Numbered from the stretch's first letter, positions 40,438-60,870 are shown. The stretch is 64,000 nucleotides of DNA from Terriglobia bacterium (GCA_965218585.1 CBDCLE010000004.1:143006-207005); one strand, 5' to 3'. The notes: generated by a model not told the origin, from the sequence alone. Program-made: numbers and translations.

Positions 40438-40648
40438 CCGAGATCGAATTTCAGCGGCGAGCAGCGTGAAACCGCATTTACGAAATCGGCATTTTTCTTT
40501 GTCGACGCACCCGGTCAGTATATGCTGCCTGAAAAATCATGATATTTGAAGTCCCCGTCATGGTGGTCTGTCATGGCTCGTGGACGAATCCGGTAGATCG
40601 GGAGTAGATTGTGACCTGCTGCTATTCTTCTCGGATTGTCGGAGGCAG

Positions 40649-41041: not shown

Positions 41042-41246
41042 TGGATTCGGCGCCAGCCGTTTCCTAAGAACGCACTCCGCCCGTTTGGTGTTCGGACGCA
41101 CGGTTCCAGGTTCCTCTCAATATCGACCGTCATCATCCGGTCGCCTTCACGATTGAACGGTTCACCCCCGGTTGAGCGACGGGACAGGTTGCGTTCCGCC
41201 GACTCTGAAAAGGGGCTGAAAATCACCACCGTCCGGAAATACCCGG

Positions 41247-42008: not shown

Positions 42009-42084
42009 GCGTCCCTCCTAGTCAATGATCCGATCCGTTCGCGCTCAAACGATGCGCACATGCCTGTGGAACGCCAGATTACTT

Positions 42085-43467
42085 TCATCTCTCTGGCGCG
42101 ACGCGAAACTCCTCGTTGCGCGCAGGGACCACCGCGGTCTCGATGGGGCGCTCAAGCTGGGGCACCCAGTCGTATGGTACACGGTATGCCCGGTAGAAAT
42201 TATTGATGTCGCCACGGTAGTAGGGATTGATGTACTCCCAGACGATCTCGTTGTCCATGGTTACCTCGAAGATCCGGCCTGTAGCTCCCTCGGCAACCAT
42301 CGTGTTGCCGTTAGGCAGTCGCTGGGCTGAGCTGACGTTCCGACTGAAGAACTTTACCCGTCCCTGGCCGGGAACCGAGTACTCCCAGACCTTTTCAAAT
42401 GTCACTGGATCAATCTCGAGGACGCGAGACCAAAAGCGGCCTACCGAGGACCGACCCGTGGGCGCAGTCGGGGACGGTGCTCCGTAGCCGGCCGCCCCGC
42501 CGTTGTCAAAAACCAGCAAGTTGCCAGCGCCGGGCAACCCCTCCGGGATAAGGTGCGGGTGATGCTGGCCCACGATTTGGCCCAACTCTGCCAAGGCCGG
42601 TACGTCCCGGTAGTCGGGTCCCATTTTCCAAACAATCGTGCCTGTGCGATCGATGATGCCGATGATGTTGGCTTGACGGCTGCTAAAGATGACGTTCTCC
42701 GGGTGGAACCGTTCGTCTCCTTCGTCGTACCAACGGTTCGATCCGAGATATGTCGCACTGTTGATGTGCAGCCAGTCAGCGCTGCCCCGGTTTTCATTCC
42801 AGCCGGGATAGCGATAGATCGTGTTGCGTGCATCGCCGCTGAAGCCGAACTCCTCGACATGGTCGCTGGCCAGCCACTCCCACACGACGTCCCCCTCCCA
42901 AGTAACCTCCAGGATGTAATCGTCTTCGAGTAGCTTGTCGGAAATCTCAGGCTTCAGGACGTTACGGTGCGCAAGAATCAGCGTTCGTCCCCCATCCACC
43001 ATCGGCTCGGCGTTTGGTGCATAATAACCCACGGGGCTGCCCTCACGTTGCCAGTCGTGGTGCTGCCGGGCCATCCACCCGGGGTCTTCGCCTTCTTCTT
43101 CCACTTGCTCGGTCCGATCGAACTTCCAGACGACCTCGCCATCCCAGTTCAATTGCAGCAGCTCCAGCCCCTCCTGGTGACCCTGCCGCGACCTGCTGCC
43201 ACCAACGACGTAACCGCCCGGCAAAATACGAAACGGACTCGGCGAAGCCCCCACTTCTGTCCAGTGCCTCAGCAGGTTGCCGTTCATGTCAATGAGAGCA
43301 GCCCCCGCCGTAGTGTTATCCCCCTCTCGAATATCGAAGACGGTATAGCCACTCCAGGTCTTATCTGGATCAAACACAGTTGTCCCAGTCGGGAAGATCG
43401 ATTGATAGGTGAATAGTAATGACGGCGTCAGAACAAGTATCGCGGTCCCGAGAACGAATCGTCTCAT
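42085..43467 (-). CDS. Aryl-sulfate sulfotransferase family protein
   Basis: PTGTT, QHHD, DWLHINS, QHHP, FDNG, SSAQRLPNGNT. Confidence 0.9.
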   Translation of the reverse strand: MRRFVLGTAILVLTPSLLFTYQSIFPTGTTVFDPDKTWSGYTVFDIREGDNTTAGAALIDMNGNLLRHWTEVGASPSPFRILPGGYVVGGSRSRQGHQEGLELLQLNWDGEVVWKFDRTEQVEEEGEDPGWMARQHHDWQREGSPVGYYAPNAEPMVDGGRTLILAHRNVLKPEISDKLLEDDYILEVTWEGDVVWEWLASDHVEEFGFSGDARNTIYRYPGWNENRGSADWLHINSATYLGSNRWYDEGDERFHPENVIFSSRQANIIGIIDRTGTIVWKMGPDYRDVPALAELGQIVGQHHPHLIPEGLPGAGNLLVFDNGGAAGYGAPSPTAPTGRSSVGRFWSRVLEIDPVTFEKVWEYSVPGQGRVKFFSRNVSSAQRLPNGNTMVAEGATGRIFEVTMDNEIVWEYINPYYRGDINNFYRAYRVPYDWVPQLERPIETAVVPARNEEFRVAPER

Positions 43468-43559
43468 GTCTTGTTTCCTCTCCTGCAACTCGGCACACCG
43501 GGGTTGCTCACGACCCAACTGAGTGGCGGAGCCCCTGCTTGTCGCTCGTATTAACGAAA

Positions 43560-43705
43560 TCTGAGAAAGCTGAAGGCAGTCTATAGAAGCAGTCAGTAGC
43601 GAAGCAACGAAATCTCAACGTCCGAGAAGATGATTTCTCAGGACTTGACCTCGCAAATCTAGGGAACCGGCACTCGTTCCTTAAGTTCCCCAGAACCAGT
43701 TCAGG
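43560..43705 (+). repeat. Array repeat 1 (palindrome 43612-43653; kinase-tail remnant 43659-43705 on minus strand)
   Basis: TCTCAACGTCCGAGAAGATGATTTCTCAGGACTTGACCTCG; minus strand LNWF/ELKERVPVP*. Confidence 0.9.
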
Positions 43706-43752
43706 AGTGATATGGAGAGGTTCCTTCCTGCAACGAGCGAGTCCTCCGTCGA

Positions 43753-45417
43753 TCAGTCCTGATCGCCGGAGGCGTCGTAGACGATCCTTCCTCCTACGAT
43801 CGTCATCAGAGGTTGGATGTCCTTGATCTCGCCGGCTGGAATCGTCAGGTAATCGCGGTCCAGAACTAGCAGATCCGCCAACTTGCCCGGTTGAATTGAA
43901 CCCAGATTGTTTTCCTGAAACACGAGGTAGGCATTTTCGCGCGTGTGGGCGATCAAGGCTTCCTCGCGGCCGATCGCCTGCCTGAGGACCTCGGTGCCGC
44001 CTACCATCTTCCCGGTCACGGCCCACCAGAGGGTCGTGAATGGCCGGTACTGATTCACCTCGAACGTGTCGCTTCCCAGGCCCCACACGATGCCGCTGTC
44101 CTCGATGAGCGCCAGCGGCGGCATATCGTAGGAACGGTCGCCGTGCGCGCGGTTGAAGATCTGGCCCATGACGGTGGGCCGCGTATGTACCGCGAGGTAC
44201 ATCCCGAGATCCTTCATGCGCTCGATGTGTGAGGCGTTCACCTGGTCGACATGAGCCAATGCCCAGCGCAGATTCCGGATGGGGTACTCCTCGTTAATCA
44301 GCTCGATCTGGTCGAGGAACCCAGTAATCGTGTTCTCGATTGTGGCGTGCACATGCAGCGGTAATCCAGCACGGGCAACCTCAGTCGCGACGCGTCGCCA
44401 CTGGAAAAGCTGCTCTGGTGTTGGACTGGTTGTGCGTGCCAGCATGCTGTCGTGCAGCGGGCGGTATACGCTTTCTCCGTAGGCGGTCAGATCTACCCAG
44501 TTGTCGCCCTGAAACGGTTTCAACTCGGCGATCTGCGGCAGAAGGCGATCCACTTGGGCTGGGGTGCCGGATGCTCCCGCCGGCAGAAAACAGAAGAAGC
44601 GCATATTGAGCCGACCCTCAGCTGCAAATTGCCGGAACCTGTCCACGAGGTTCGCCGGGCAGGGACCGCCGGCCGTGGTAAGACCCGCTCGGTTCATATC
44701 GCGGATCATTGCCAGACTGCTGGATTCGAACAATTCTTCTGGCGGTGCGGGACGCGCTCGCCCAACTTGGTTGATGCCTTCAGCTTCGATCACGCCTGTC
44801 GGTCTTCCGCCATCATCGCGCACGATCCACGGAGCGTTCATCTCATTCAAGCCGATGGCCTCGATAGCGCGGCTGTTGAGATAGGTGTGGGAGCGTGTGT
44901 ACTGCAACAGTACCGGGTTGTTGGGAGCAACCCGGTCCAACTCGTCGCGTGTGAAATGACTCACGTCGTCTGTGAATTGATCCGTCGCCCAACCGCCCAG
45001 CGTGAAAACCCATTCGCCCGGACCCAGATCGATTGCCCGCTGGCGTATCATCTCGAGCGCCTCGGTCCGCAATTCCACCCCATCCAGACGCAGTTCCAAC
45101 TGCCAGATTGGACCTTCTTCCATGATGTGAGCATGGTTATCGATCAGGCCGGGAATAACAGTACGTCCTCCGAGGTCGATCGTTCTGGTATTGGGCCCGG
45201 CCAGTCGCGCAACTTCCTCGGTCGTGCCGACTCCCACGATACGTTCGCCCAGGACAGCCACCGCTTCTGCGATCGTGAAGCGGTCATCTACAGTAACGAT
45301 CTTTCCGTTGGACAGAACCAGATCCGGAGCCTGATCCTGTGCATGAGCCATCGATGCAGCAACGGAACTTGCTAACAGCACAAGAGCCACTGTCGTTTTC
45401 CAGTTCAAATGTTTCAC
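43753..45417 (-). CDS. Secreted amidohydrolase (Amidohydro_3/YtcJ-like)
   Basis: PGLIDNHAH, LGSD, GSIQPGKLADL. Confidence 0.92.
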   Translation of the reverse strand: MKHLNWKTTVALVLLASSVAASMAHAQDQAPDLVLSNGKIVTVDDRFTIAEAVAVLGERIVGVGTTEEVARLAGPNTRTIDLGGRTVIPGLIDNHAHIMEEGPIWQLELRLDGVELRTEALEMIRQRAIDLGPGEWVFTLGGWATDQFTDDVSHFTRDELDRVAPNNPVLLQYTRSHTYLNSRAIEAIGLNEMNAPWIVRDDGGRPTGVIEAEGINQVGRARPAPPEELFESSSLAMIRDMNRAGLTTAGGPCPANLVDRFRQFAAEGRLNMRFFCFLPAGASGTPAQVDRLLPQIAELKPFQGDNWVDLTAYGESVYRPLHDSMLARTTSPTPEQLFQWRRVATEVARAGLPLHVHATIENTITGFLDQIELINEEYPIRNLRWALAHVDQVNASHIERMKDLGMYLAVHTRPTVMGQIFNRAHGDRSYDMPPLALIEDSGIVWGLGSDTFEVNQYRPFTTLWWAVTGKMVGGTEVLRQAIGREEALIAHTRENAYLVFQENNLGSIQPGKLADLLVLDRDYLTIPAGEIKDIQPLMTIVGGRIVYDASGDQD

Positions 45418-45429
45418 AGCACCTCTCCC

Positions 45430-45768
45430 TTAAAAAATTCTCCTGTTGCTCGATTCCCGCACCAAGACACGATGCCACACTCCTCTGGGTACTACGACTG
45501 CTTGTCCGGGAGCGACCTCAATGATGTTCTCGTCGCCGTCTTCTTCCAAGATGACATCCACACGCCCTGAGATTAGGAAAAGAATTTCGTCGGCGTCTGG
45601 GTGCATCTCTCCGCCGTGTCGCTGAGGCGGATTCAACATTACCAATGGGGCCCCAATGACGAAGCCATCTACTCGTGGCGGAGGGCTTGATTCCCACGGT
45701 ACGAGACTCGCGCTGCCGTTGCGCTTCAGTCCGATAAGGGACCGCGATAGATCCAATGTCCTAGCCAT
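45430..45768 (-). CDS. Cupin domain protein
   Basis: EMHPDADE, VVPRGVWH. Confidence 0.87.
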   Translation of the reverse strand: MARTLDLSRSLIGLKRNGSASLVPWESSPPPRVDGFVIGAPLVMLNPPQRHGGEMHPDADEILFLISGRVDVILEEDGDENIIEVAPGQAVVVPRGVWHRVLVRESSNRRIF

Positions 45769-45798
45769 GAGAACTCGATAACAGCCTGACGCCTCAAG

Positions 45799-45839
45799 GT
45801 CAACGTCCGAGAAGATGATTTCTCAGGACCTGAGAATCA
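45799..45839 (+). repeat. Array repeat 2
   Basis: GTCAACGTCCGAGAAGATGATTTCTCAGGACCTGAGAATCA. Confidence 0.9.
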
Positions 45840-45846
45840 CGTTCTC

Positions 45847-46194
45847 CTAACCGAAGAAACACGCGTACTCATCAGTGCCAACGATTTGTAGAACTTCCTC
45901 TAGGTTGTCAGCTTCCGGGACGGGATCATAGCGGTGCCACCGGAGATCGGCTCTCTGCCAATAGATCTTCCACACGCCCTTGGCCTTGACATAGGTCGCC
46001 TTTGCGACCCCCGCCTCGATTTTGCTTCCGGGCTCATTCGGCGACGGATGGATCTCGAATATTTCGACGCTCTGTCCGCTCACCCTACTACTGAGATCGA
46101 TCTTATTGCGATGTTGAGCCTGTGGCCGGAGGCGTTCGACAAACCGACGCGCCACCATCTCATACTTCTTCGATTCAAATTCACTGAAGGCCAT
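45847..46194 (-). CDS. DUF3024 domain protein
   Basis: VAKATYVK..WKIYWQRADLRWHRY..CFFG. Confidence 0.88.
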   Translation of the reverse strand: MAFSEFESKKYEMVARRFVERLRPQAQHRNKIDLSSRVSGQSVEIFEIHPSPNEPGSKIEAGVAKATYVKAKGVWKIYWQRADLRWHRYDPVPEADNLEEVLQIVGTDEYACFFG

Positions 46195-46262
46195 ACTTTA
46201 GATTACAGATTAACGTGAAGTTTACTTCTCTTGTGTCGCTATGGAACACGGTGCATCCGCAT

Positions 46263-46310
46263 GTCAACGTCCGAGAAGGTGATTTAATAGGCGTTGAGAA
46301 TCATTTTCAA
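46263..46310 (+). repeat. Array repeat 3
   Basis: GTCAACGTCCGAGAAGGTGATTTAATAGGCGTTGAGAATCATTTTCA. Confidence 0.9.
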
Positions 46311-46460
46311 GGTCGTCCGCTGGTCCGGAACACTATACCTCGCTAGCGGGGAAAACTGCCGAGGCTGGTAAGCCTCGGCAGTGACATCCGGCCTTCGCCG
46401 GGGTGACTACGCTATAATCCGGCCTGACCATTTTTTCACATCACACAGAGGGACTGTGCC

Positions 46461-46646
46461 ATGAAGCGCCTCGTCGCTGTACTCGGATCCCTTCGTGGAA
46501 GAGCGCAAGATTCTGTTGCGTACCACAACACGCAGAACGACGCCAACAACATCCGCAGCGTGTGGCGCGACTTCAACGGCGATTTCGGCGAGGACCTGCT
46601 GGCCTCCCAATACCGGGCGCACCCGCATCTCGCGCCGGAGGAATAG
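46461..46646 (+). pseudogene. DUF3500-like protein, internally deleted (start + C-terminus only)
   Basis: NTQNDANNIRSVWRDFNGDFGEDLL. Confidence 0.65.
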
Positions 46647-46661
46647 AGGAGGAATACAGCT

Positions 46662-47933
46662 ATGTCGATTCGATTCCCAGCACTCGTGATCACGCTACTC
46701 GCGCTCGTGCCCTCGACCTTGTGGTCGCAGGCGGCAGACGGCCCCGAGGCGCGCTGGACGATCCTGCACGCCGGCACGGTGCTCCCCGTTCCTGGAGAGC
46801 CACCGCTGACCCGGCAGTCGGTCGTCATCCGTGGCGATCGGGTCGACCGGCTCCTCCCCGGCTATGCGACCGCCGAGTCCCTCGGCCTCGATCCGGCCGG
46901 GGTCGACGTGATCGACCTGACGGAGTATTTCGTCCTGCCGGGCCTCATGGACATGCACGTGCACCTCACCGGCGGAGCGCCCAGCGGGGTTCCGTCCGAG
47001 GCCGCCGACCTGTACCGCCTCACGGGGGGCATCGTCAACGCCCGCCTGACGCTGCGGGCCGGCTACACGACAGTGCGCGACCTCGGCTCGACGGGATGGT
47101 CGATCTTCGCGCTGCGCGACGGCGTCGAGGCCGGCGATCTCGAGGGCCCGAGGATGTTCGTCGCGGGGCACACGATCCGCAGCTCCGCCAGCGACGGCTC
47201 GGGATCCTGCTACAGCGTGGAGAGCTGCCGTGAGGCGGTGCGGCGCCAGATTCAGATGGGCGCCGATCTGATCAAGGTCTACGTAACCTGCAGCGGTACC
47301 CAGCCCTGCGCCCACCCGGACGCGCCGGCCCTCTTCCTCAAGGACGAGCTGGTCGCCGCCGTGGAGACGGCCCGGACGCGCGAGCTGAAGGTGGCGGCAC
47401 ACGCCCATACGACCGCCGGCATCAACCTGGCGCTGGAGGCCGGGGTCGACTCGATCGAGCACGGCTCCTGGCTCGACGAGCGCTCCTACGAGCTCCTGGG
47501 TCAGACCGGCGCCTACCTGGTGCCGACGCTAGCGGTAAAGGAATTCATGCGGCAGAGGCTCGACCAACGATCGCCGGAAGAGCGCGCACGGCTCGAGGCC
47601 TCCATGGTTGAGCACCCGCGGCGGGTCTTCGAAGCCTTCCAGGCCGGCGGCAAGATCGCGTCGGGCAGCGACGCCGGGGGCTCGCGGAATGGCGAGAATG
47701 CGCGCGAGCTCGAAACCTACGTCGACATCGGCCTGACCGAGATGGAAGCGATCGTCACCGCGACGGTCAACGCGGCGGCGCTGTTGGGCGAAGCCGACCT
47801 GGGCACGCTCGAGGCCGGCAAGTTTGCGGACGTCATCGCCGTATCGGAGAACCCGCTCGAGAACATCTCGGCGTTGACCGACGTCGACTTCGTCATGAAG
47901 GGCGGCACCGTCTACGCGACCCTTCGCGACTGA
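46662..47933 (+). CDS. Metal-dependent amidohydrolase (Xaa-Pro dipeptidase-like)
   Basis: PGLMDMHVH, GYTTVRD, AAHAH, SIEHG, GSDAG. Confidence 0.93.
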   Translation: MSIRFPALVITLLALVPSTLWSQAADGPEARWTILHAGTVLPVPGEPPLTRQSVVIRGDRVDRLLPGYATAESLGLDPAGVDVIDLTEYFVLPGLMDMHVHLTGGAPSGVPSEAADLYRLTGGIVNARLTLRAGYTTVRDLGSTGWSIFALRDGVEAGDLEGPRMFVAGHTIRSSASDGSGSCYSVESCREAVRRQIQMGADLIKVYVTCSGTQPCAHPDAPALFLKDELVAAVETARTRELKVAAHAHTTAGINLALEAGVDSIEHGSWLDERSYELLGQTGAYLVPTLAVKEFMRQRLDQRSPEERARLEASMVEHPRRVFEAFQAGGKIASGSDAGGSRNGENARELETYVDIGLTEMEAIVTATVNAAALLGEADLGTLEAGKFADVIAVSENPLENISALTDVDFVMKGGTVYATLRD

Positions 47934-48015
47934 AGGTCAGGCATCGCGTCGGCGAGCAGCTGCGCGTACCCGAAGTACCAGACGAGCACGCCGGCCGATC
48001 ATACGCTCGGGGCCG

Positions 48016-48197
48016 TGTCTCTGATGTTGCTAAACCTGAAAAAGCTGGAGAACTATAGAACGAGCGGGTTGGAAGCGATGATTTGAATCAGCAGGGTTCT
48101 CAAGGTCCGAGAAGATGCTTTAACAGGCGTTGAGAATCATTTTCACGGTTATTTAAGGTGCTGGTACGCACTCGCCCAGCTCTTGGAACCAGTTCAC
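48016..48197 (+). repeat. Array repeat 4, long form
   Basis: ~80-bp extension shared with 56921; palindrome 48097-48136; minus strand VNWFQELGECVPAP*. Confidence 0.9.
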
Positions 48198-48383
48198 TGA
48201 CCTGAAGGCGTATCCTATTCACCTCCGCTAGCCTAGCACCGATCCCGCTTCGCGGACGGAGCCCAAATTTCTGCGCGGCTCGGCCATAACAGTTGTTGTG
48301 GAATCCTTCGCTTGAGGGTTCGGGGCTTCGTGGGTCCGCTATGTGGAGCTAGCGTCCTGTAGTTAAAACTCAGTTCGGAGCTC

Positions 48384-48785
48384 TCAGAAATCAGCCGGTG
48401 GAGGTGCGTTGTTGCCGTCCCAATCTTTGACGGTTCCGTCCTGGGCCTTTAGAAATCCCAGAAGACAGCCGTTGGAGCCGTCCCTGTGACGATGGCAGCG
48501 CGCTTTGACAGTGTCACCCGGTTTCACGTATTCGGGCGTGACTCCTATTCTTTCGAGCGCTGGGCGACCGGTTGCTTCCAGCGCCCACATTTGCGGGTCG
48601 CCATTGGTGTCCCTGACTTCCAGGTAGATCCAGGAGTGCGGGACGATCAAGTGAAGTTCCCTGACCACACCTTCAACATCGATAAACGTGTCGACGTAGT
48701 TGCCGTGGGAGTGGTGTGCCCACACCGGCAGGGCGAGGGCAACGCCACAAATCGCCGCAACGACAAGACCTGGGTTGAACCGCAT
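48384..48785 (-). CDS. DUF6152-family secreted protein
   Basis: AHHSHG, PHSW, WALE, PGDTV. Confidence 0.85.
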   Translation of the reverse strand: MRFNPGLVVAAICGVALALPVWAHHSHGNYVDTFIDVEGVVRELHLIVPHSWIYLEVRDTNGDPQMWALEATGRPALERIGVTPEYVKPGDTVKARCHRHRDGSNGCLLGFLKAQDGTVKDWDGNNAPPPADF

Positions 48786-48826
48786 GCTTACCCTCCTCGC
48801 AATCGATACAGAAAAAGGTTTCACGA

Positions 48827-49578
48827 TTAGCGCTCCGGGCGCCCTTGATCTGCCCGAGGAGTGTCGATCTGACCTTGACCAGGCTGAACCACCGGGTCGC
48901 CCGCACCAGCGATCGGTGGTACCGGGTACACGCCCATACCGTGGTAGGAATTGGAATAAATCATTTGATAGCGAATCCTTTGTCCGTTTCGGTCAACCCA
49001 ACCCATCGACTGCTGAAACAAGCCCGGCTCCGGGTATCCCTTCGGGACCGTGCCTTCCAGAACATACAATTTGTTTCATGCATCGCGACGTACGCAAAGG
49101 TGCGGGACTGATCGGCGTTGTTGGTCAGGTGTATGGAGTGTCCTTCAACCATGTCCTGCCAGTCCCAAGCCAGACTTGTTAACTCTGCGTCACGCTGAAG
49201 GAATCTGAACGTCGCGTAAACGATCGCCCCTCGCTCATCCTGCTTCCAATACCCGGGGCCGATAATTGGGCCGGCGTTTGACCGGCACTGCGCGTTGCCG
49301 GGGGGACATGTCTCGGAACGCTCGATGCCCTGTTGTTCCAGGGCCGTGTAATCGACGACAGTGATCGAGTAACGCTCGGTGCCCCTATCGGCGCTGTATA
49401 CACGCGCGGGAAGCCTGTAGTCCAATTGCGACTCCCAGGTGGTCTCGGTCACCGTTGGCTGCCCCGGAAAGTTCACACTAAAGCCGTCTTGCGTGTTGAC
49501 GTATACCTCCCATTCCTGGGCGACTGCGGACCCAGGCGGCGACAGCACCAACGCGAAAACTAACGCGGTCATGCGCAT
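48827..49578 (-). pseudogene. Secreted hypothetical protein, frameshift near 49075
   Basis: Signal peptide + FSVNFPGQP; continues in a second frame (YVLEGTVP..FQQS). Confidence 0.7.
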
Positions 49579-49699
49579 GACGTTTTCCTCCCTTCCGGAT
49601 AGACAATACTCTGCCACAAAACGGCTCAACCGTCGTGAATTCTTCTTGCCGCCACGGACCGATGGGCACTGGGGCAAGATTCCCGGACACTTGGGCGGC

Positions 49700-50659
49700 T
49701 CAAGGTTCAATGACACATCGGTTCGCCCCACTTCCCTCGGCGCCGCCTCCATCGCGGTACACGGCATGGCAGTTTGCGCAGGCATCGTTCAGTGAGTCGC
49801 TGAGGTCCACTAACGCATCATGATCTCTCGCCTTTGATGCTTGGTAAACCTTCTCCCCGACTTCCACGAGGTCCGCGACGTACTGCTTCCAGTCGGCGCG
49901 ATCCACCGGGACCGGTCGGCCGTTTTGGCACCGGCGTCCCGGCGTCAAAAGTAGAGGTGCAGTTTCGGTGAGAGCAACGGCAGCCTGATCGACCTTCAGC
50001 CATCCGGCATAAACAGTGGATCCCCACTCGACGTAATCAAAAGGGACGGGCATCGGCTTTGTCGGCTCGTCAGAGGGATTCTTGACCTGAAGGTTAAATA
50101 TGACATTCGAATTGGGAAAGGCGATGGCTCTCATCAACTCGGCAAGGTTGCCTTGCGGCGGGGGGAGAAACGTTTCGGACAAAGCGGCGGCGGGTTCTCG
50201 GGAAGTGCCCAACGTCGGGAGCGTGATCTCGGACAGCTCGCCTTCGCTCAGATCAGCTTGTCCGGCGGGAAACTCGCCGGTCTGAAGAATGTAGGCTGTG
50301 AGGTCAGTTGATTGTTGCCGAGAAAGGCTCCCGGGCGCGTTGAACGGCATCGTGTTCTCAATTTTGTCGACGAGATCCGACAGCGGGCGCCCGCTCCAGT
50401 TCGAGAGGAAACCGTCCCCAGTCAGCGGGGATCCCGCGCTGGCGCCTTCGAGCGCATCGCCATGACATACCGCACATTGCGCTTGGTAAATCGGTGCGGC
50501 CCGCTCTGCCTGGGGGGCGGAATAGACACCGTCTGTTATCGATCGCAGCTGCCGAGCGTTCCCGATAAGCGAGAACGCCGGGAAGATCATGCAGGCGCAC
50601 AGTCCCGCGCCCATTGCGCAGCGAATCACTTGCCGGGGCACTCGAATTATGCCGATCAT
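49700..50659 (-). CDS. c-type cytochrome (two CxxCH)
   Basis: CAVCHG, TMP, CANCH. Confidence 0.88.
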   Translation of the reverse strand: MIGIIRVPRQVIRCAMGAGLCACMIFPAFSLIGNARQLRSITDGVYSAPQAERAAPIYQAQCAVCHGDALEGASAGSPLTGDGFLSNWSGRPLSDLVDKIENTMPFNAPGSLSRQQSTDLTAYILQTGEFPAGQADLSEGELSEITLPTLGTSREPAAALSETFLPPPQGNLAELMRAIAFPNSNVIFNLQVKNPSDEPTKPMPVPFDYVEWGSTVYAGWLKVDQAAVALTETAPLLLTPGRRCQNGRPVPVDRADWKQYVADLVEVGEKVYQASKARDHDALVDLSDSLNDACANCHAVYRDGGGAEGSGANRCVIEP

Positions 50660-50796
50660 CTATCCCTCCTCCAGGTTGACGAAAAACCTCTCGCTTATGC
50701 CGCCCCCGAACCAAGGGCGGACAGGGCCGTGCGATGGCCGGCGTCTTGCCGGATTCCATCGTTATAGTCTGTCGCAGACTGACACGTGACGTTGAG

Positions 50797-50871
50797 CCGC
50801 CAAGATGATTTCTCAGGACTTGACCTCGGAAATCAGGGCACCTGAACTCTTTCACGCAGTTCTTCAAACCA
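50797..50871 (+). repeat. Array repeat 5 (left arm clipped)
   Basis: CCGCCAAGATGATTTCTCAGGACTTGACCTCG; minus strand WFEELRERVQVP*. Confidence 0.85.
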
Positions 50872-50872
50872 C

Positions 50873-51757
50873 TCAGTCGAGGCCGAGGAACCGGGCGGGA
50901 TTGCGCTTGGTCATCATGTCGATCTCGGCCTGGCTGAAGCCCGCTTCCGCGAGGTTGGCCACGGCTATTTTGAAGCCGTCGGGGTGGATCATTCTACCGC
51001 GCTGGCCGAGATCGGAGGTCACGACCACGTTTTCCGGACCGACCTCCCGGACGTCAGCAAGGTCCTGTTCGGTGAGGCCCGTGGCACCGAGCGTGTGCTC
51101 GATCAGCGCCCCCATACCGGCCGCCTCCTTCTGCATCTCCATCGACATGTTGATCCGCTCGTCCGTCGGGTGCTGCACGTATATCTTGTCGACGCCGGCC
51201 GCCCTTGCCGCCCGGATCAGCATCATAGATTCCTCCGGAGCGGAGTGTCCGGTGGACAAGCCGAGATCATACTCCGCCATGACTTCGAGGACTTCATACA
51301 CTTCCGGCAGCAGTTCCCCGTTGCGTGAGATCGGGACGGCGTCGGGTGAACCCGGATTGTAGTACTCCGACTCGAACGTCGGCATGTATACCACCTTGCC
51401 CCGCCTGCCAAGCACCGATGCCATGTTCTCCACCGCCACCGGATTGATGCCGCCCGACGGCCGGTTCAGGGCGATGCCGCCGAAGAGCTCGATACCCGGC
51501 ACCACCTGAGACACCAGGTAGGCCCAGGAAGCGGTTTCCAGATAGTGGTGCTTGAATACCAACCCTCTCATGCCGTTACGCTGGGCGATCCGGGCGGCTT
51601 CGATGGCGTTGAGCGAGCGCCTGAAAGGCGAGAGCAGCGTCTCCGGCCCCACATGCGCGTGGAGGTCGATTATGCCCTCGACTCCCGATACCTCATCGAC
51701 CTGCGCGGTTCCGACGCCCGATAAGCCGACCAGCGACCCCAGAAGAACCGACAGCAC
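50873..51757 (-). CDS. DUF6282-family (amidohydrolase-fold) protein
   Basis: IDLHAH, KHH, GGINP, STGH, SDLGQ, NPARFLG. Confidence 0.85.
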   Translation of the reverse strand: MLSVLLGSLVGLSGVGTAQVDEVSGVEGIIDLHAHVGPETLLSPFRRSLNAIEAARIAQRNGMRGLVFKHHYLETASWAYLVSQVVPGIELFGGIALNRPSGGINPVAVENMASVLGRRGKVVYMPTFESEYYNPGSPDAVPISRNGELLPEVYEVLEVMAEYDLGLSTGHSAPEESMMLIRAARAAGVDKIYVQHPTDERINMSMEMQKEAAGMGALIEHTLGATGLTEQDLADVREVGPENVVVTSDLGQRGRMIHPDGFKIAVANLAEAGFSQAEIDMMTKRNPARFLGLD

Positions 51758-51877
51758 CTATATCCGCAATTTCATAGTTCGCTCCTTGTGTTGCTTGAGA
51801 CGACTAAATACTACGAGGGAGGGGAGTTCAGGTCAATGAAGCGGTCACTGCGTGTAAAACCCCTAACCGGACAGTCG

Positions 51878-51990
51878 ATTCTCAACGTCCACGAAGATGG
51901 GTGATCTCAACCGGTCAATGCAATACTTTAGGTAGTTTAGGGAACAGGCACCCGCCCTTTCAATTCTTCAAACGAGTTCAGGACGAACGT
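51878..51990 (+). repeat. Array repeat 6 (degenerate right arm)
   Basis: ATTCTCAACGTCCACGAAGATG; minus strand VLNSFEELKGRVPVP*. Confidence 0.8.
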
Positions 51991-52107
51991 CTTGCCATCC
52001 CCTCCACTGCAAACGCCACTGATTTGACTTATCGGCCGCACGGCTTCAAATTGTCAAGACCTGGCTGCACCCGGTGCAAAAGGATTTTCGCCGGGAACGC
52101 GCCCTCG

Positions 52108-52674
52108 TTACCTCTGTCGCACCCATGAGAGCGAGTACGTTCCCCGGAGTCGAGCGAAAGTGAACACCAGTGCCGGAATCCGGAACCAACCCCTCCAGAC
52201 GAAAGTGGTCTGCACCCCGCGAAGCTTGATCTTAGTTACCAGTTGATCGCCCTGCCTGATGAATTCGTGTGATTCCACGAGCGTTCTCTCGGACTCTGCG
52301 AAGGCCGGAACTGCGGTCCACTCGTCGGATTCCGGCGGATCGAGTCCGAGGGGCGGGTATTGGAAGCTCCTGTCAATCGTTGACGGAAACAGACCGCCGT
52401 CGTGGTTCACGTCTTTCGTTTCGCCGCGGGGATTCGGACGGAAGCCGATGGCGTTGTCGGGTGGTTTGGGGGGCGGATCGCGAAACAGCGGGACGTCCTG
52501 TGTACCATCCGGAAAAGGAACGGCTTGCGAAAAGGCCCCAGTTGGCACGGGCATGCGGTCCGTCCGCACCGCTGCTATGACGGCCCTCGGCACCATCGGT
52601 TTGGGCCACGCGGCAACGCTACCGCTGGATGGTAGTTGCCGTTCGTCGAGAAACGAAAGTGAAAATCTCGGCAA
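52108..52674 (-). CDS. Hypothetical protein, possibly a fragment
   Basis: 188-aa ORF only. Confidence 0.35.
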   Translation of the reverse strand: MPRFSLSFLDERQLPSSGSVAAWPKPMVPRAVIAAVRTDRMPVPTGAFSQAVPFPDGTQDVPLFRDPPPKPPDNAIGFRPNPRGETKDVNHDGGLFPSTIDRSFQYPPLGLDPPESDEWTAVPAFAESERTLVESHEFIRQGDQLVTKIKLRGVQTTFVWRGWFRIPALVFTFARLRGTYSLSWVRQR

Positions 52675-52732
52675 ATCTAGCTACATGTAGGATTTATTAG
52701 CCAAGAAAACTGTCAGCGCTGTAATGCGGCCA

Positions 52733-52822
52733 ATTCTCAACGTCCGACAAGATGATTTGTCAGGACTTGACCTCGAAAAACTATGGCACAGGCACCCGTT
52801 CCTTCAGTTCCTCGAAGCAATT
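52733..52822 (+). repeat. Array repeat 7
   Basis: ATTCTCAACGTCCGACAAGATGATTTGTCAGGACTTGACCTCG; minus strand NCFEELKERVPVP*. Confidence 0.92.
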
Positions 52823-52928
52823 TGTTCATTTGGGAGGCGAAGCGCCAGCCGCACTGCACCGATATCGGGGAACCGCTCTCCGAGGGGCTTCCGCAGGCAC
52901 AGGCGCAGCGTCTGACGGCGGAGTTGCC

Positions 52929-55421
52929 TCAGAACTGAAATCGAAGCCCGATCTCGATCTCTCGCGGATTCTGAGCGCTTGTCGGCAGGCCGAAATTGGG
53001 GGAGGTCATCACGCCCGAAGGCAAGTTGAAATTCACGTTGTTGAAGGCGTTGGTAACATTTGCGAACACATTGAGATTGGTTCGGGTTCGGCCAGGTGCT
53101 CCGGCCGCGTCGAAGAAGAATGCTTTGGAGATGTTGAAATCGAAACGGAGAAACTTCGGCCCGTCACCCGCGTTTGGTGGCACGCCTCGAGGCCGATCGG
53201 TTAGATGGCCGTCCTGGTTCTCGTCCGTTCCCGTCGTGATGTTGTAGCGTTGGCCGCTGTTGGCCGATGTCGTCGCTGTCAGGAATATACCCAGCGGGAG
53301 CTGCGCGTTTGCCGTGCTGCTGAGTGTGTGCGCTGGGAAAAAACTACCGAGACCCCACTCCGCCCGGAGATCGTAGTTATCCGCGGGAAGAGGGTCCCTC
53401 GCATTCGGACCACCGTTGCTGTGGACTCTCTGAAACTGGTAGTTCGCCGACACGTTGAAGATGCTGAACCTCTGCCGATACGACAGTCGAAACGAGTGGT
53501 GGACCGCGGCCCGCGTACCCTCCAGATTGAGGATTTCTTGTTTCGTTGGATCCGGGCGAACACAGGTCTCCAGGCTCTGATCCTTCGTGCAGGAACGCCG
53601 CACCGACGCGGTGATGTCGTACGGCGCATTCACGTCTCTGAACCGCATTCGATGCACATCGTGCTGATACTCATATGCGGCGCTCAGGAACAGGTTGGTC
53701 AAGAATGTCCGTTCAATTGAAAGCATTCCGACCGTGAGATAGGGTGCCGACAGCGTTGGATCCGTTATCCGAACCGACGGCAGCAGATTCTGGACGGTTC
53801 CGGACTGAAAAGGATCCGGATAGGAGGGATCGTCGATGACGATCTCGAACTGACGCGTTCCGTCCAGCCGCCGCTGCCCCTCAACCAGATCGATATCGAA
53901 GCTGTTGTAGAAAATCCCGAAGCCGCTTCGCATGACCGTGGCCCGGCCGAGGGCATAGGCCAACCCCAACCGGGGGCCGAAGTTGTCCGCATCGTTCAGG
54001 TTCGTTTGCCAGTCATAGCGAAACCCGTAATAGAGGGTCAGCTCCGGGGTCAGCTTCCAATCGTTCTGCATGAAGAACGCCAGCTCCAGCTGGTTGGTAT
54101 CTAGCAGCGGCTCGCCCCGGACTACCCGATACTGGAACGGCCGCCCCTGGTTGAAATCGTCCAGGCTCGAAAACGTGAAGGTTCCGTTGAAGTTTGCCGT
54201 CGACTGGGCCCGATTCTTCCGGTATCTTCCGTCGACTCCCGTCCGGATCGTCAGGTTTTCCGACAGGTGCGTATACAGGTTGCCTAACTCGTAGATGCGG
54301 CCATACCTCTCAGAGCGGTTCTGCGCGCCGCCGCTGCTGAATGCGTCGAGGACATCGATTCGGAAGCCCTCCGTGTCCGGGATAGTCTCCTCGTAATTGC
54401 TGCTGTACGCGAAACGCATCTCATAGATGCGCTCGGCCGACAGCCGCGAGAACTGCCTCAGGTCGACGTACCAACCGTGGCCCTCGGTGGTCCATGCGCG
54501 TTCAGGCAACGTAAACCCACCGATGCCTTGGTTCTCGAAGGAGTGAGGGAAGTAGCCAGTCTCGAACGTCAGGGAATGGTTCTCGGCGAGCTGGTACGTT
54601 CCGCCGGTGCCGAACGACCGGTTGGTCGTCGGTCGCACGATCTCACGTGAAAACGCCGATCCGTCCGCCAGCGTGGCATTGATGGTTTCAACATTCTCGG
54701 CTTCGTTCTGGCTGCCTCGGAAGCTCATCGTCAGGTGACCCGGAACGACGGGCCCACTGACATTGAAACTCGTGTCCCGCTCCTGATACGGGGGTTTCAC
54801 GGTCGGCACTCTCCGGCCCCGGTTGTAAGAGCGCCGGCTGGCGTTCAACGATTCGTCAATGATCAGGAACTGCACGTTGCCGTGAAACGCACCGGCGCCG
54901 CCCCGCTCGATCACTTCCGCTCGGCGCGGGCCACTGCCGATCCGGTAGAATCCCTCCTCGGCGGTGAACACGTTCGGGTAGAGCCGAACATATTGAGTCT
55001 GCTCGGGCGGACCGCTCGGCTGTAGTTCGTCAGCCGGGAGCGCCTCGGTCGTTTCCAGATACTGGCTCCAGGCCCGGCGTTGTGCATCAGTGAGGTAATC
55101 CTCCAGGCGCGCGAGAAACTCATTCTCCATCCACTCGATTGCAGAACGCAGCCGGTCCGATTGCTGTCCCTGGGTGGGGCCCGCGCTGAAATCCATCAGG
55201 TCGCCGAACAGCTCTTCAGACGCCTGACGTCGGTCTTCCATCATCAATATGATGGCGCTGTCCTGCGAGTCGGTGAACGGGACCGCCGCTTCGTCTAGGA
55301 CGCCCTCGACCTCCAGCTTCAGCACTGGAAGGGGATTCTCCGCCGACGGTCTCCCATCCTGGGCCATAGCAAGAATGGACAGGGCTCGGAAGAGAAGGAT
55401 GAGGGCGAGTGAAGTTCTCAC
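52929..55421 (-). CDS. TonB-dependent receptor-like outer-membrane beta-barrel protein
   Basis: FMQNDWK..YGFRYD, FGPRLGLAY, C-terminal PREIEIGLRFQF. Confidence 0.87.
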   Translation of the reverse strand: MRTSLALILLFRALSILAMAQDGRPSAENPLPVLKLEVEGVLDEAAVPFTDSQDSAIILMMEDRRQASEELFGDLMDFSAGPTQGQQSDRLRSAIEWMENEFLARLEDYLTDAQRRAWSQYLETTEALPADELQPSGPPEQTQYVRLYPNVFTAEEGFYRIGSGPRRAEVIERGGAGAFHGNVQFLIIDESLNASRRSYNRGRRVPTVKPPYQERDTSFNVSGPVVPGHLTMSFRGSQNEAENVETINATLADGSAFSREIVRPTTNRSFGTGGTYQLAENHSLTFETGYFPHSFENQGIGGFTLPERAWTTEGHGWYVDLRQFSRLSAERIYEMRFAYSSNYEETIPDTEGFRIDVLDAFSSGGAQNRSERYGRIYELGNLYTHLSENLTIRTGVDGRYRKNRAQSTANFNGTFTFSSLDDFNQGRPFQYRVVRGEPLLDTNQLELAFFMQNDWKLTPELTLYYGFRYDWQTNLNDADNFGPRLGLAYALGRATVMRSGFGIFYNSFDIDLVEGQRRLDGTRQFEIVIDDPSYPDPFQSGTVQNLLPSVRITDPTLSAPYLTVGMLSIERTFLTNLFLSAAYEYQHDVHRMRFRDVNAPYDITASVRRSCTKDQSLETCVRPDPTKQEILNLEGTRAAVHHSFRLSYRQRFSIFNVSANYQFQRVHSNGGPNARDPLPADNYDLRAEWGLGSFFPAHTLSSTANAQLPLGIFLTATTSANSGQRYNITTGTDENQDGHLTDRPRGVPPNAGDGPKFLRFDFNISKAFFFDAAGAPGRTRTNLNVFANVTNAFNNVNFNLPSGVMTSPNFGLPTSAQNPREIEIGLRFQF

Positions 55422-55587
55422 AAAAGGGGCTCCACGGGCAATCGGAAACTATTTTAACCGAACCTCCGCACACGTGGATGGGAACCGTAGCAGGCAGTCG
55501 GTCAAGATCCAGCGGCGAATGACAACGCTATGAGGATGTAATTTGTCCGAACCGTTCTTACCTCACAAATAGAATGGCTTTGCTCCG

Positions 55588-55629
55588 ATTCTCAACGTCC
55601 GAGAAGGTGATTTGTCGTTACCTTGAGAG
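55588..55629 (+). repeat. Array repeat 8
   Basis: ATTCTCAACGTCCGAGAAGGTGATTTGTCGTTACCTTGAGA. Confidence 0.82.
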
Positions 55630-55764
55630 CCTCTTGCTAAGGATTCTGCGTTTACAGAGTGACGTCCCCCAATGAATCGGGGCCGTCCGACAGAACCCAC
55701 TCTGGACCAGTGGGTCATTTCGCAACGTGGAGGTCGATTTCGATGAGAGATCGACGGTGGTGGA

Positions 55765-56849
55765 CTAGAAGTCGCCAGCGCATTCAGTGGCGAGCCTGTG
55801 CCGTCTTCCACTGCGAGCGGAGCCGCGACCAGCATGAACTCCCAACGGTTCAGCTGCGCCGCGGTCTGGGCGAGCGCTTCCAGGTCCTGATTATCGAACA
55901 AGTCTATTCCCATCGCCACTATCGTCAACATGTGCACCGGGAGTCGCACATCATCGACCTGAGACGGCACGACGTCCAGCGCGCTGTCGCTGCCCATGAA
56001 CGAGACGTCACGTGCCCTCACCCAAGGCATCGCCGACGCGTGGAGTCCCGCGCTCTCGGCGGCAACATCCCAGGGGCCGAGTTCCGCGCGGCGGGCCCAG
56101 CGGCCAGTACGAACGAAGATTGCGTCGCCGGGTCGCACAGTCACGCCCGCCATCTCTTCCCACGCATCGAGGTCCTCCATGTAGATCGGTGTTCTGGGTT
56201 CTAGGTACGGAACGCCTTTGAGGCGAGGAATATCGAATAGCACCCCGCGGGTCACAATACCCTCTTGCAAGTTGAGAATGGAGGCGTTCGAACAGCCTGC
56301 TTCTGTGATCGTGTCCTCGGTCGCACCGTTGTACATCTGGCCCTTGTACATGATGTGACACAAGGCGTCGATGTGGCTATGTGCGTAGCCATGGTAGGCG
56401 ATGCTGTACTGGTCGAGGGCGCCGCTCATGAGCGCGGGCTCACCGGACAGATCAGGGAAGCTCAACATCGCGTGTCCGAACGGCTGTGGAACGTCGTCGG
56501 CTTCGTCCGTCAGGAGTCGGTGGGCAAGTGATACGGTGATCCCATCGGTGGCCAGCGCGATTGCCTCTAACCGCTTAGCGGGCGTGATCAGATTTGCCGC
56601 TCCCAATTGGTCATCAGAACCCCAACGGCCCCAGTTCGACAAGTCGTCCATGAGGCGTTCGATGTCCGACTGCGCGAGGTCGTGCGACTCGGGCGTAACT
56701 GCTGGGGGAACATAGTCCGAAACAGACGACGCGGTGTCCTGCGGTAGATTGGCGGTCTGCTCGATATCCGTTGCGCATCCGACGAGCGCGATAATGAGAA
56801 CTACCTGCAGTGAGCCTCTCGGCAGCAGTCCCAGTTTATGTTTGGTCAT
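55765..56849 (-). CDS. Cyclase-family metal hydrolase (lipoprotein); ORF-track extension to 55563 is probably a terminal frameshift
   Basis: NWGRWG.DDQLG, HSHIDALCH, RTG, GTGSPLN. Confidence 0.88.
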
Positions 56850-56920
56850 ATATCCCTCCAAAAAAGGCATCGTACGGGCCGAATTTTGTGCCTGCTGTAA
56901 GAGCCATTGGCTCGGGACCT

Positions 56921-57087
56921 TGTCTCTGATGTTACTAGAGGTGGAAAAGCTGGAGAAAGTCTATAGAACGAGCGGGTTGGAAGCAATGGTTGGAAGCAAC
57001 CGAATTCTCAATGTCCGCCAAGATGATTTAACAGGCGTTGAGAATCATTTTCATCGTTTAAGGCACGGACACGCGTTCTTTCAGTCG
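56921..57087 (+). repeat. Array repeat 9, long form
   Basis: Extension shared with 48016; palindrome 57004-57045; minus strand RLKERVSVP* in frame after the hydrolase stop. Confidence 0.9.
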
Positions 57088-57924
57088 TCACTCGAGTCCT
57101 TGACTCGCCATCGCTCGCTTAAATGCTTCAACACCCTCATTGACGGCGCGCGTCGAGATGTCTGATGGAGTCAAGAGATCAAAACCGTGAACCGTGCCCG
57201 GATAGTTGTGTAGTTCGACCTGAACACCGGCTGCCATCAGCCGCATTGCGTATATTATTCCTTCGTCACGCAGGGGATCGTGTTCGCACGTCATCACATA
57301 AGCCGGGGGCAACCCAGACAAATCATCCGCACGTGCCAGAGCCGCATAAGAGGACACGTTGCTTCGGTCTCTACCGATGTACTGGTCCCACATGTCTAGC
57401 GTGTTCTGAGAATCCCAGATATACAAACCCGCGCCGTCTTTCATCGATAGTGTCTCACAACGATCATCAACAGCAGGATAGATCAGCATCTGGAACGCCA
57501 CATCGGGACTGCCGCGATCGTGCGCCATCAACGCAACTGCTGCCGCGAGATTGCCACCCGCACTGCCGCCGCCAATCGCGATCTTTGCCGGATCGATCAT
57601 GAGTTCTTTTGCGTTCGCAGCTACCCACTGCAAGGCCGCGTAGCAGTCTTCAACGCCGGCCGGAAAAGGGTTTTCAGGAGCCAGCCGGTAGTCCACACCT
57701 ATAGAGACTGCCCCGCCCTCTGCTGCCATGATCAGACAGCGGGGATGTTCTATCTCCAGATCGCCTAGGACGAATCCTCCACCATGAAAATTGACAAAGG
57801 CCGGTCCTGCTTGGGCGCGGTCTTTGGGCATGTAGATACGAATCGGCACTTCGGGTCCACCGTCTGTCCTCTCTATTGTCCGCTCAATTTCATCGACTCG
57901 GTCATCGGGCGGTATTTCCTTCAC
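57088..57924 (-). CDS. HSL-family alpha/beta hydrolase
   Basis: HGGGF, YRLAPE, GGSAGG, DPLRDE, HGF. Confidence 0.92.
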   Translation of the reverse strand: MKEIPPDDRVDEIERTIERTDGGPEVPIRIYMPKDRAQAGPAFVNFHGGGFVLGDLEIEHPRCLIMAAEGGAVSIGVDYRLAPENPFPAGVEDCYAALQWVAANAKELMIDPAKIAIGGGSAGGNLAAAVALMAHDRGSPDVAFQMLIYPAVDDRCETLSMKDGAGLYIWDSQNTLDMWDQYIGRDRSNVSSYAALARADDLSGLPPAYVMTCEHDPLRDEGIIYAMRLMAAGVQVELHNYPGTVHGFDLLTPSDISTRAVNEGVEAFKRAMASQGLE

Positions 57925-57987
57925 TCCCCAACTCCCTCCTTCTCCGAGGAGTGGCGCTTTTGGGGGGCCCTTGCTCGTTATGTGGCT

Positions 57988-58170
57988 CTAGAACCGAGGA
58001 ACAACCGGCGGTGGTGGAGGCAATGCACCACTCGAACTGCTCGCGCTGGAACCGTCGCTACTGCTGCCTCCAGCGTCCCCTCCACGCAGCAGGCGGAGCT
58101 GCTGCTTCGTCAATCGTTTCCAGAACCAATCCTTGCCTTTACTGTTTTTCTTCGTCTGCATGTGTTTCAT
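57988..58170 (-). CDS. Small peptide with double-glycine-type leader
   Basis: GGGAG close to ATG; LTKQQLRLLRGG followed by a Ser/Gly/Pro-rich core. Confidence 0.5.
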   Translation of the reverse strand: MKHMQTKKNSKGKDWFWKRLTKQQLRLLRGGDAGGSSSDGSSASSSSGALPPPPPVVPRF

Positions 58171-58176
58171 CTCCCT

Positions 58177-58215
58177 TTCTCAACGTCCGACAAGATGATT
58201 TAACAGGACTTGACC
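58177..58215 (+). repeat. Array repeat 10
   Basis: TTCTCAACGTCCGACAAGATGATTTAACAGGACTTGACC. Confidence 0.9.
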
Positions 58216-59098: not shown

Positions 59099-59320
59099 TT
59101 CCAGTTTCTAGCTGCAGCAGTCCCTGGCCATCTCATCTCACGGTCTGACAGTCACCCTTCTTCGTGGGAAAGACCGCCCTTATCAATGGTGGGCAGAATC
59201 TCACTGTGGCCAAGTTCGGTGGCCGAATCCAAAGGTTTGAAATCGTTTTTCGCTCTTAGAGTGCGCACACAGAAAATCTTACTAAATGTTGCTACATGTG
59301 AGAGTTAATGGCAAGAAAAG

Positions 59321-59360
59321 GGTCAAGTCCTCGCAAACGACCTTGTCGGAAGTTGAGAAT
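59321..59360 (-). repeat. Array palindrome, inverted subtype, at the upstream boundary
   Basis: Reverse complement ATTCTCAACTTCCGACAAGGTCGTTTGCGAGGACTTGACC. Confidence 0.85.
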
Positions 59361-59362
59361 CA

Positions 59363-60870
<1,508 letters not shown>

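Follow-up and report, generated by a model that had tools for sequence, protein, structure and literature searches.

Genomic-island att sites duplicate the 3′ end of a tRNA or tmRNA gene, and in class 1 integrons the loss of an attC site joins two cassettes into a fused one. Textbook attC sites are about 55-140 nucleotides (nt) long. An array with traits of these systems lies in a 64,000-nt stretch of a Terriglobia bacterium genome, contig C4:143006-207005 of an assembly of 4.55 Mb in 26 contigs (G000), referred to here as the window. Within it, six short remnants of the 3′ end of a Ser/Thr kinase gene, called tips, stand before palindromic repeats. Judged from the window and from four congeneric genomes (G001-G004), the tips are probably non-functional scars of decayed kinase cassettes, the body of which was replaced by or fused to cargo.

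Under the definitions of Cury et al. (2016; PMC4889954), a cluster of attC sites without an integrase is a CALIN, and the present array together with the lone intI loci of its congeners would correspond to CALIN plus In0. On the terms of those definitions the likeness lies in co-oriented imperfect palindromes ending in a GTTRRRY-like box, in mobile units of one or more genes plus one palindrome with borders in the box and diverse cargo, and in integrase genes found elsewhere in congeners as lone In0-like loci. The array differs in its sites of ~40-45 nt and its long, often multi-gene cassettes, about half of which carry relics of one family at one or both ends, the founder cassette having a fixed 108-nt leader.

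Class 1 fused cassettes are alike in that a site-removing deletion merges units and leaves part of one gene, but here the pattern is systematic (66 of 122 non-kinase cassettes), always concerns the same kinase-propeller family and comprises graded remnants. As at tRNA and tmRNA island att sites, copies of a gene 3′ end lie beside inserted DNA; unlike those sites, the copies vary in length and show synonymous differences, no intact target gene stands at the array end, and crossover falls outside the tip. Acidobacterial paralog families of kinases with PD40/TolB-like propellers share the Pkinase and PD40 pair and the ...NWFEELKERVP tail. Elsewhere their genes follow one another in tandem, the stop of one overlapping the start of the next, and no palindrome is present, whereas in this genus a palindrome and a leader separate the genes, most of which are decayed.

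Kinase-propeller relics at the cassette ends

The first-pass annotation of the window reported six minus-strand tips, each just before a palindrome and together using all three stop codons, and no kinase gene body. Translation of the minus strand recovers all six peptides, with the stops TAG, TAA, TGA, TAA, TAG and TAA in coordinate order, and the kinase body is indeed missing from the window. In every case the palindrome lies downstream of the tip at a distance of 8-20 nt.

43659-43716, minus strand: tip 1, frameshifted LLNWF/GELKERVPVP and a stop codon that ends at 43659; score 66, consensus positions 10-64
43612-43656, minus strand: type A palindrome (GGTCAAGTCCTGAGAA/ATCATCTTCTCGGACGTTGAGA), a 14-bp hairpin with two single-base bulges
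48153-48200, minus strand: tip 2, SVNWFQELGECVPAP and a stop codon, second codon variant; score 28
48097-48146, minus strand: type B palindrome (left arm ATGATTCTCAACGCCTGTTAA)
50833-50876, minus strand: tip 3, (ST)EWFEELRERVQVP and a stop codon, translated as STEWFEELRERVQVP; score 51
50797-50832, minus strand: degenerate palindrome, left arm retained and right arm replaced, no hairpin
51937-52053, minus strand: tip 4, ...GKTFVLNSFEELKGRVPVP and a stop codon; score 68
51879-51935, minus strand: palindrome copy with a type C left arm (GTATTGCATTGACCGGTTGAGATCA), no hairpin fold
52781-52822, minus strand: tip 5, TNCFEELKERVPVP and a stop codon; score 56
52734-52778, minus strand: type A palindrome
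57058-57087, minus strand: tip 6, RLKERVSVP and a stop codon; score 37
57005-57054, minus strand: type B palindrome

Scores are those of a local alignment to a 66-nt tail consensus, for which 2000 random 130-nt windows of the genome gave a 99th percentile of 25 and a 99.9th percentile of 28. The resemblance is not due to chance. Tip 2 is borderline at the nucleotide level because it carries the second codon variant (TTCCAAGAGCTG...), which it has in common with the kinase genes on contigs C9 and C11. A repeat search recovered the tips independently, as a four-copy repeat (D8) and as an 80-nt repeat (D9) of 88% identity between 43610-43689 and 52732-52811.

The tips travel with cargo as cassette parts. 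Tip 1 lies 3′ of an amidohydrolase gene (43753-45417), and tip 2 downstream of a three-gene cargo coding for a cytochrome c (49700-50659), an unknown protein (48961-49785) and a DUF6152 protein (48384-48824). Tip 5 follows the gene of an outer membrane protein (OMP) beta-barrel (52929-55421) by ~105 nt. Cargo stops abut two of the tips, as had been noticed at first reading: the W codon of tip 3 is 1 nt from the stop (50873) of a DUF6282 gene (50873-51757), and tip 6 directly follows, in frame, the stop of an esterase gene (57088-57924), reading LE, stop, RLKERVSVP, stop. The relic at tip 4 measures ~50 nt at the DNA level and up to 117 nt by protein match.

Full-length members of the source family have an N-terminal Pkinase domain, PD40 repeats and a C-terminal ...NWFEELKERVP; the tips align to this tail, and longer relics of up to 109 amino acids (aa) to the propeller. 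All four G000 loci that end in the tail are Pkinase plus PD40 genes. Among 20 long open tails of other Acidobacteriota-type metagenome-assembled genomes (MAGs), including Terriglobia, 18 match PD40 and one Pkinase, and one has no match. The domain matches of tail-bearing genes thus bear out the earlier attribution of the peptide to the C-terminus of Ser/Thr kinase plus TolB-like (PD40) propeller proteins.

A kinase cassette consists, in order, of GTTGAGAA, a 108-nt leader, the ATG of the kinase (ESGTKLGHYEI...), a PD40 propeller ending in ...NWFEELKERVPVP and a stop codon, 8-20 nt, and the palindrome. Six of seven reference kinase cassettes place the ATG (MESGTKLGHYEI) at exactly 108 nt past GTTGAGAA; the seventh begins ATGGAG and was missed by the string search. 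Whether full-length kinase genes precede the same palindrome had been proposed as a check, and they do so at three of the four G000 loci and at an uninterrupted 905-aa gene of G001. Palindromes flank the two kinase genes of contig C2 (K1 and K2) and that of C9 on both sides. By this layout, the kinase-propeller genes of the genus are cassettes themselves. None of the four tail-bearing kinase genes of G000 is continuous: frameshifts break two of them and insertion sequences (ISs) the other two. K1 consists of open reading frames (ORFs) of 503 and 369 aa, K2 shifts frame ~50 codons ahead of its tail, an IS256-type transposase divides the C9 gene and an IS3 copy the C11 gene. No sigma-70 promoter was found in the kinase leader, although acidobacterial promoters may differ.

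The leader marks the other cassette end. When the 350 nt past the R′ box of each palindrome (GTTGAGA(A) in nearly all copies) were compared, 96 of 208 sites grouped with the kinase leader and the first kinase codons in one single-linkage cluster. A leader profile (nhmmer, E at most 1e-3) was then applied to 131 cassettes, taken as same-strand neighbouring sites 150-8000 nt apart and omitting leader-internal inverted copies: 25 carry both ends, 14 the leader only, 36 the tip only and 56 neither. Setting aside the nine that still hold at least 200 aa of kinase leaves 122 non-kinase cassettes, 19 of which have leader and tip, 13 the leader only, 34 the tip only and 56 neither. The kinase leader is accordingly kept in 32 of the 122. 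Three leader relics, one of them weak, occur in the window.

52631-52733, minus strand: 5′ leader relic, nhmmer E=1.5e-11, leader positions 4-99
59173-59450, minus strand: long-type leader with an inverted palindrome copy (59321-59360) and ~25 degenerate first kinase codons, nhmmer E=1.4e-12 (leader match 59192-59343)
50731-50795, minus strand: weak partial leader relic that opens the cytochrome c/DUF6152 cassette, after the 50797 site; E=1.7e-06, leader positions 72-114

The first of these belongs to an 832-nt cassette (51906-52730) that holds the leader relic, an unrelated 188-aa ORF (52108-52674) and tip 4. The ORF was considered as an internally deleted kinase and rejected, showing no similarity and no family match. 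The long-type leader lies upstream of an ankyrin cargo (58238-59098); it is not the end of the adjoining IS3 element, which spans 59559-60871 and does not include it. A G001 amidohydrolase cassette retains the leader plus 11 kinase codons. The cargo of 15 both-ended cassettes includes amidohydrolase, metallo-beta-lactamase-fold, sulfatase plus arylsulfotransferase, amidase, MOSC, glyoxalase and OMP barrel genes, and IS transposases occur in two of the 15.

The relics are graded in size. A tail remnant lies upstream of 29 of 82 G000 core hits (at most 5 substitutions), the 3′ end of which keeps a constant distance to the core, 23 nt in type A and ~35 nt in type B, whereas the 5′ end varies. At 85 tip-bearing sites the relic is too short for a protein match in 32 cases, 42-408 nt long in 46 and at least 648 nt long in seven, some low-identity extensions being possibly overcalled; overall, relics range from ~18 nt to whole genes. 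The amidohydrolase cassette at 43615-45438 illustrates the erosion. It is 94% identical in G001, frameshifted tip included, and in both genomes a 47-57-nt frameshifted relic lies behind the same post-stop sequence. The G003 copy, a paralogous cassette (73% identical), has the matching post-stop sequence, a hairpin, a 109-aa (~300-nt) open propeller relic (E=5.6e-25) and the palindrome. One truncated tip shares ~45 upstream bases among genomes, ahead of which the sequence differs between G000 and G001/G003, a pattern that points to serial turnover.

Divergence among the tips was assessed on the 27 of 34 G000 tails that align without gaps; seven with indels or a lost stop, including window tip 1, were dropped. 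Compared with the consensus, the 23 orphan tips among them show 28, 26 and 83 differences at codon positions 1, 2 and 3, and 69 synonymous against 68 non-synonymous differences (22% synonymous expected); since copies are related, the p-values of this comparison are overstated, yet its direction is clear. The third-position bias shows that the tips derive from distinct, once-coding genes and diverged while coding, in keeping with the earlier proposal of distinct paralogs or old duplicates. In two orthologous or paralogous cassette pairs, tip identity is 91% and 88% against 96% and 87.5% for the cargo, with palindrome arms at 75-83%; a third pair was misaligned and three further pairs had no cargo homology. 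The tips are thus not better conserved than the cargo and give no sign of constraint.

Other Terriglobia place this decay in context. Their kinase genes form tandem rows in which stop and start overlap and palindromes are missing, and orphan tails and orphan starts occur there too. Decay of the kinase-propeller family is general; its embedding in a cassette system is particular to this genus. In six loci of Terriglobia MAGs (L031, L034, L035, L037, L041 and L073) the tail stop overlaps the next kinase start (...VPVP and stop, then IGKTLGHYEI), and in several such loci the next kinase gene ends after 12-25 codons, a mirror image of the orphan tips. At another locus, L060, the open frame passes from a kinase domain (Pfam positions 10-139) to the ...NWFEELKERVPVE tail and stop within ~55 residues with no PD40 match and looks like an internally deleted kinase-propeller gene. 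Tandem kinases in G004 are followed by other, partly related hairpin fragments and not by this palindrome.

Palindromes as candidate attC-like sites

A search for the 22-nt palindrome core with at most 3 mismatches gave eight hits in the window against 0.00 expected. The array, at 40.4-59.4 kb, comprises ten co-oriented core copies from 40408 to 58199, plus the degenerate copy at 50797. The right half of the palindrome is near-constant (ATCATCTTSTCGGACGTTGAGAA), with the copy after tip 3 (50833) degenerate. The R′ box follows GTTRRRY and has a complementary R″, but its last base is A, not Y. Left arms carry TCTCAAC in type B and GGTCAAG in type A. Type A folds into 14 bp with two single-base bulges and type B has only an 8-bp outer stem, with hairpin z-scores of -1.4 to -2.6 and energies of -6 to -8.5 kcal/mol; the copy at 50797 remained unfolded. 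Tips accompany type A and B left arms (84 of 151) far more often than other arms (7 of 40), which indicates that tip and arm are inherited together.

A tip-less unit of the window served as the reference for cassette borders.

45797-46310, minus strand: tip-less DUF3024 cassette with its two bounding palindromes

This unit is 92-95% identical across G000, G001 and G003. What adjoins it on the left is unrelated from genome to genome (type B arm; type D arm; tip with type A arm), and the right flanks differ as well. Identity begins at ...GTTGACAT and stops at ...GTTGA, placing the border in the R′ box, and the G000 copy has a 64-nt deletion between stop and palindrome. With such borders the palindromes behave like integron attC sites, the crossover falling within the R′ box. 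Because no integron integrase is nearby, the array is CALIN-like, provided the sites count as attC; a complete integron, with intI beside the array and an attI, is not seen.

Cargo between the window palindromes includes arylsulfotransferase, amidohydrolases, cupin, DUF3024, DUF6152, cytochrome c, DUF6282, OMP barrel, cyclase, esterase and ankyrin protein genes. Spacing between palindromes has a median of 2036 nt (n=127), and cassettes are often multi-gene. A mobile, ORF-less mini-cassette made of tip and palindrome only was considered and dropped: the shortest of the 127 intervals is 389 nt, and all four below 420 nt hold small ORFs. Cargo orientation, taken from the longest ORF as a gauge of random capture, does not separate the classes, being sense in 68% of relic-bearing and 71% of relic-free cassettes.

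Core copies with at most 2 mismatches number 48 in G000, 130 in G001, 82 in G003, seven in G002 and one in G004. Outside the genus, three of 56 genomes have one or two copies and 53 have none. Matches to IntI above the cut-off occur in three of the four congeners (G001, G002 and G003), and G004 has none. In G001, a 2.3-2.5 kb element encoding a 306-aa tyrosine recombinase occurs at G001:C1:92862-95370 and three further sites (L106-L109; six equal matches), with copies 99.8-99.9% identical. In either orientation it starts right after, or ends right at, a palindrome copy, and it may target or use these sites.

Replacement, fusion and other explanations

Of the two alternatives raised by the first-pass annotation, the replacement of kinase bodies by cargo fits best, cargo cassettes having kept the 5′ leader and first codons of the kinase as well as its tail. 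The tips indicate that new genes repeatedly took over old cassettes in this genus. On this account, kinase-PD40 genes would travel as integron-type cassettes with a fixed layout of leader, ORF, tail and palindrome, and most window cassettes would have lost the kinase body, leaving unrelated genes between surviving cassette ends. We infer that cargo arrived by events that were not site-specific, whether illegitimate recombination, IS-mediated rearrangement, or a deletion fusing a cargo cassette to a neighbouring kinase cassette. Kinase DNA not needed to keep the palindrome would have been whittled away afterwards, and the tips would have no function of their own.

Several observations weigh against this account. 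Leader and tip co-occur only modestly above independence in the 122 non-kinase cassettes (19 observed with both ends, 13.9 expected; odds ratio 2.4, Fisher p=0.04, a value uncorrected for kinship among cassettes that include duplicates and orthologues), so that replacement within a cassette and fusion with a neighbour are inseparable. The frequency of tail remnants in G001 and G003, at 57 of 115 palindromes, comes from 28 loci picked from dense arrays, a non-random sample. Ten of 34 G000 tails have no palindrome, and palindrome-free orphan tips (fewer than 40 open codons upstream) occur at 12 of 45 loci in other Terriglobia; tail relics are therefore not dependent on the cassette system. Assembly errors in a genome of 26 contigs could account for the frameshifts in kinase genes. 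The sites, at ~40-45 nt with the outer left arm and GTTGAGAA both included, are short of the usual attC length, and type C palindromes do not fold. G000 has no integron integrase, its best TIGR02249 match reaching 83.7 bits against a cut-off of 265 bits, and the IntI loci of G001, G002 and G003 have no palindromes or repeat arrays within 12-40 kb.

A more tentative extension, which we hold to be doubtful, would make the kinase-propeller cassette a reusable chassis, in which the leader and the tail-plus-palindrome persist while chromosomal genes take the place of the coding body. New cassettes would then be born by ORF replacement in an old cassette and not by adding a recombination site to a gene, and the series of relics from whole gene through 300 nt and 50 nt to none would represent natural intermediates in cassette genesis. 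The retained ends could in addition provide homology arms by which cargo spreads from one kinase slot to another. Two papers of 2021 by Ghaly et al. (PMC8352920 and PMC8618304) list the genesis or formation of cassettes as unresolved, and the origin of integron cassettes is acknowledged as an open question in Cury et al. (PMC4889954) as well. Abstracts and some passages of the integron and attC literature yielded no description of kinase or other one-family gene relics beside attC sites. In three related genomes, over half of the non-kinase cassettes keep the ends of one ancestral cassette type around unrelated cargo, with intermediates of different ages. They make reuse of an existing cassette frame, one way in which new cassettes could arise, directly accessible to comparative genomics and recombination assays. 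If the relics are only fusion scars, their value is smaller, yet they are a useful marker of the decay of integrase-less arrays.

Fusion with neighbours alone might suffice, an explanation that is unlikely but the strongest of the rivals. Ordinary cargo cassettes would have suffered random deletions that removed their own palindrome together with the leader and the bulk of a kinase cassette lying downstream, or the upstream mirror image, each tip marking a fused pair. The excess of one-ended cassettes (34 tip-only and 13 leader-only against 19 both-ended) and the near-independence of the two ends are consistent with this, as are deletions seen beside palindromes, one module with two successive tail relics ~170 nt apart, and degenerate half-palindromes. 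Such fusion would, however, demand kinase cassettes beside about half of the cargo cassettes, and a kinase body is now present in only nine of 131. OMP cargo occurs in two genomes with homology restricted to the gene, which in G003 is in the opposite orientation relative to the palindromes, and none of the tip-bearing window cargos was seen to have a tip-less twin equipped with a palindrome of its own.

Replacement or fusion within integron-type cassettes also has to be set against palindromes of another kind, either a REP-like (repetitive extragenic palindromic) repeat or the target of another recombinase, such as the 306-aa enzyme of G001. In that case the array would represent a tandem kinase cluster in decay, like those of other Terriglobia, and the tips would remain relics. 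The lack of a nearby IntI, the short, weak hairpins, the palindrome-free tandem kinases with orphan tails and starts in other Terriglobia, and the recombinase element placed right at G001 palindromes all lend themselves to it. So does the presence of two Y1/RAYT transposase genes in G000, although these show no link to the repeats. A conserved GTTGAGA box, cassette-precise borders and co-oriented arrays form an integron pattern, and they make this origin distinctly improbable. The distribution of the repeat is less clear-cut: it is abundant in G000, G001 and G003, of which G001 and G003 encode IntI and G000 does not, and rare in G004, which has no IntI, but also in G002, which has one.

It is very unlikely that the tips are kept by selection, as an accessory recombinase-binding site or as a small terminator (GGAAC...GTTCC with a TGATTTTC tail) that would shield cassettes from one another. 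The last 20-30 nt of the tail, at least, are retained at about half of the palindromes, one tail was flagged as terminator-like, and the association with type A and B arms could be read as retention. Yet no window tip was flagged as a terminator, the stem requires a T that is absent from the consensus, conservation in orthologous pairs is no better than that of cargo, the third-position bias is a coding signature, and frameshifts and internal deletions are present.

Least credible is the other first-pass alternative, an element that integrates at the kinase 3′ end in the manner of tRNA islands, carrying a copy of that end as its att site and leaving a tip each time: repeated 3′ gene fragments do adjoin inserted cargo at a fixed distance from the palindrome, but truncation ranges from the whole gene to nothing with some frameshifts, mobile-cassette borders lie in the GTTGA box downstream of the palindrome and outside the tip, tip-less cassettes are equally mobile, no intact kinase-propeller gene stands at either end of the window array, and the tips differ at synonymous sites, unlike copies from one element.

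Other features of the array and related loci

One mobile element adjoins the array.

59559-60871, minus strand: IS3-family element at the head of the array, outside the cassette system, with rve and HTH_21 domains and an ALIL (apical loop-internal loop) frameshift pseudoknot at 60422-60538

This element has ~17 copies in G000 at 99.4-99.9% identity, one of which is the copy that splits the C11 kinase gene. A 379-aa ORF of the window runs from it into the flank. Further on, at 61015-62499 on the minus strand, a 494-aa ORF combines pieces of a sigma-54 AAA+ activator (Sigma54_activat, AAA_lid_14) with a protein kinase domain; it is only ~34-36% identical to the cassette kinases and has no PD40 part.

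Within the array, the ankyrin cargo (58238-59098, minus strand) encodes ankyrin repeats and an Lcl C-terminal domain, and the 100-nt tandem repeats at 58740-58999 (D4, D6) are the ankyrin units. Two stretches of ~95-150 nt located 3′ of the R′ box, at 48000-48092 and 56905-57000, are 83-86% identical to each other in two cassettes of differing cargo (D7, D11) and do not correspond to the kinase leader.

Two insertion sequences were noted at related loci. The IS256-type element (Transposase_mut) within the C9 kinase gene (L102; G000:C9:77440-78770) has a 51-nt end stretch that recurs at 100% in more than 60 places. In G003, a cassette with kinase leader and tip (L029:3867-7851) carries an OMP barrel gene and an IS30-like transposase (HTH_38 and rve) in antisense orientation, a possible case of IS-mediated capture.

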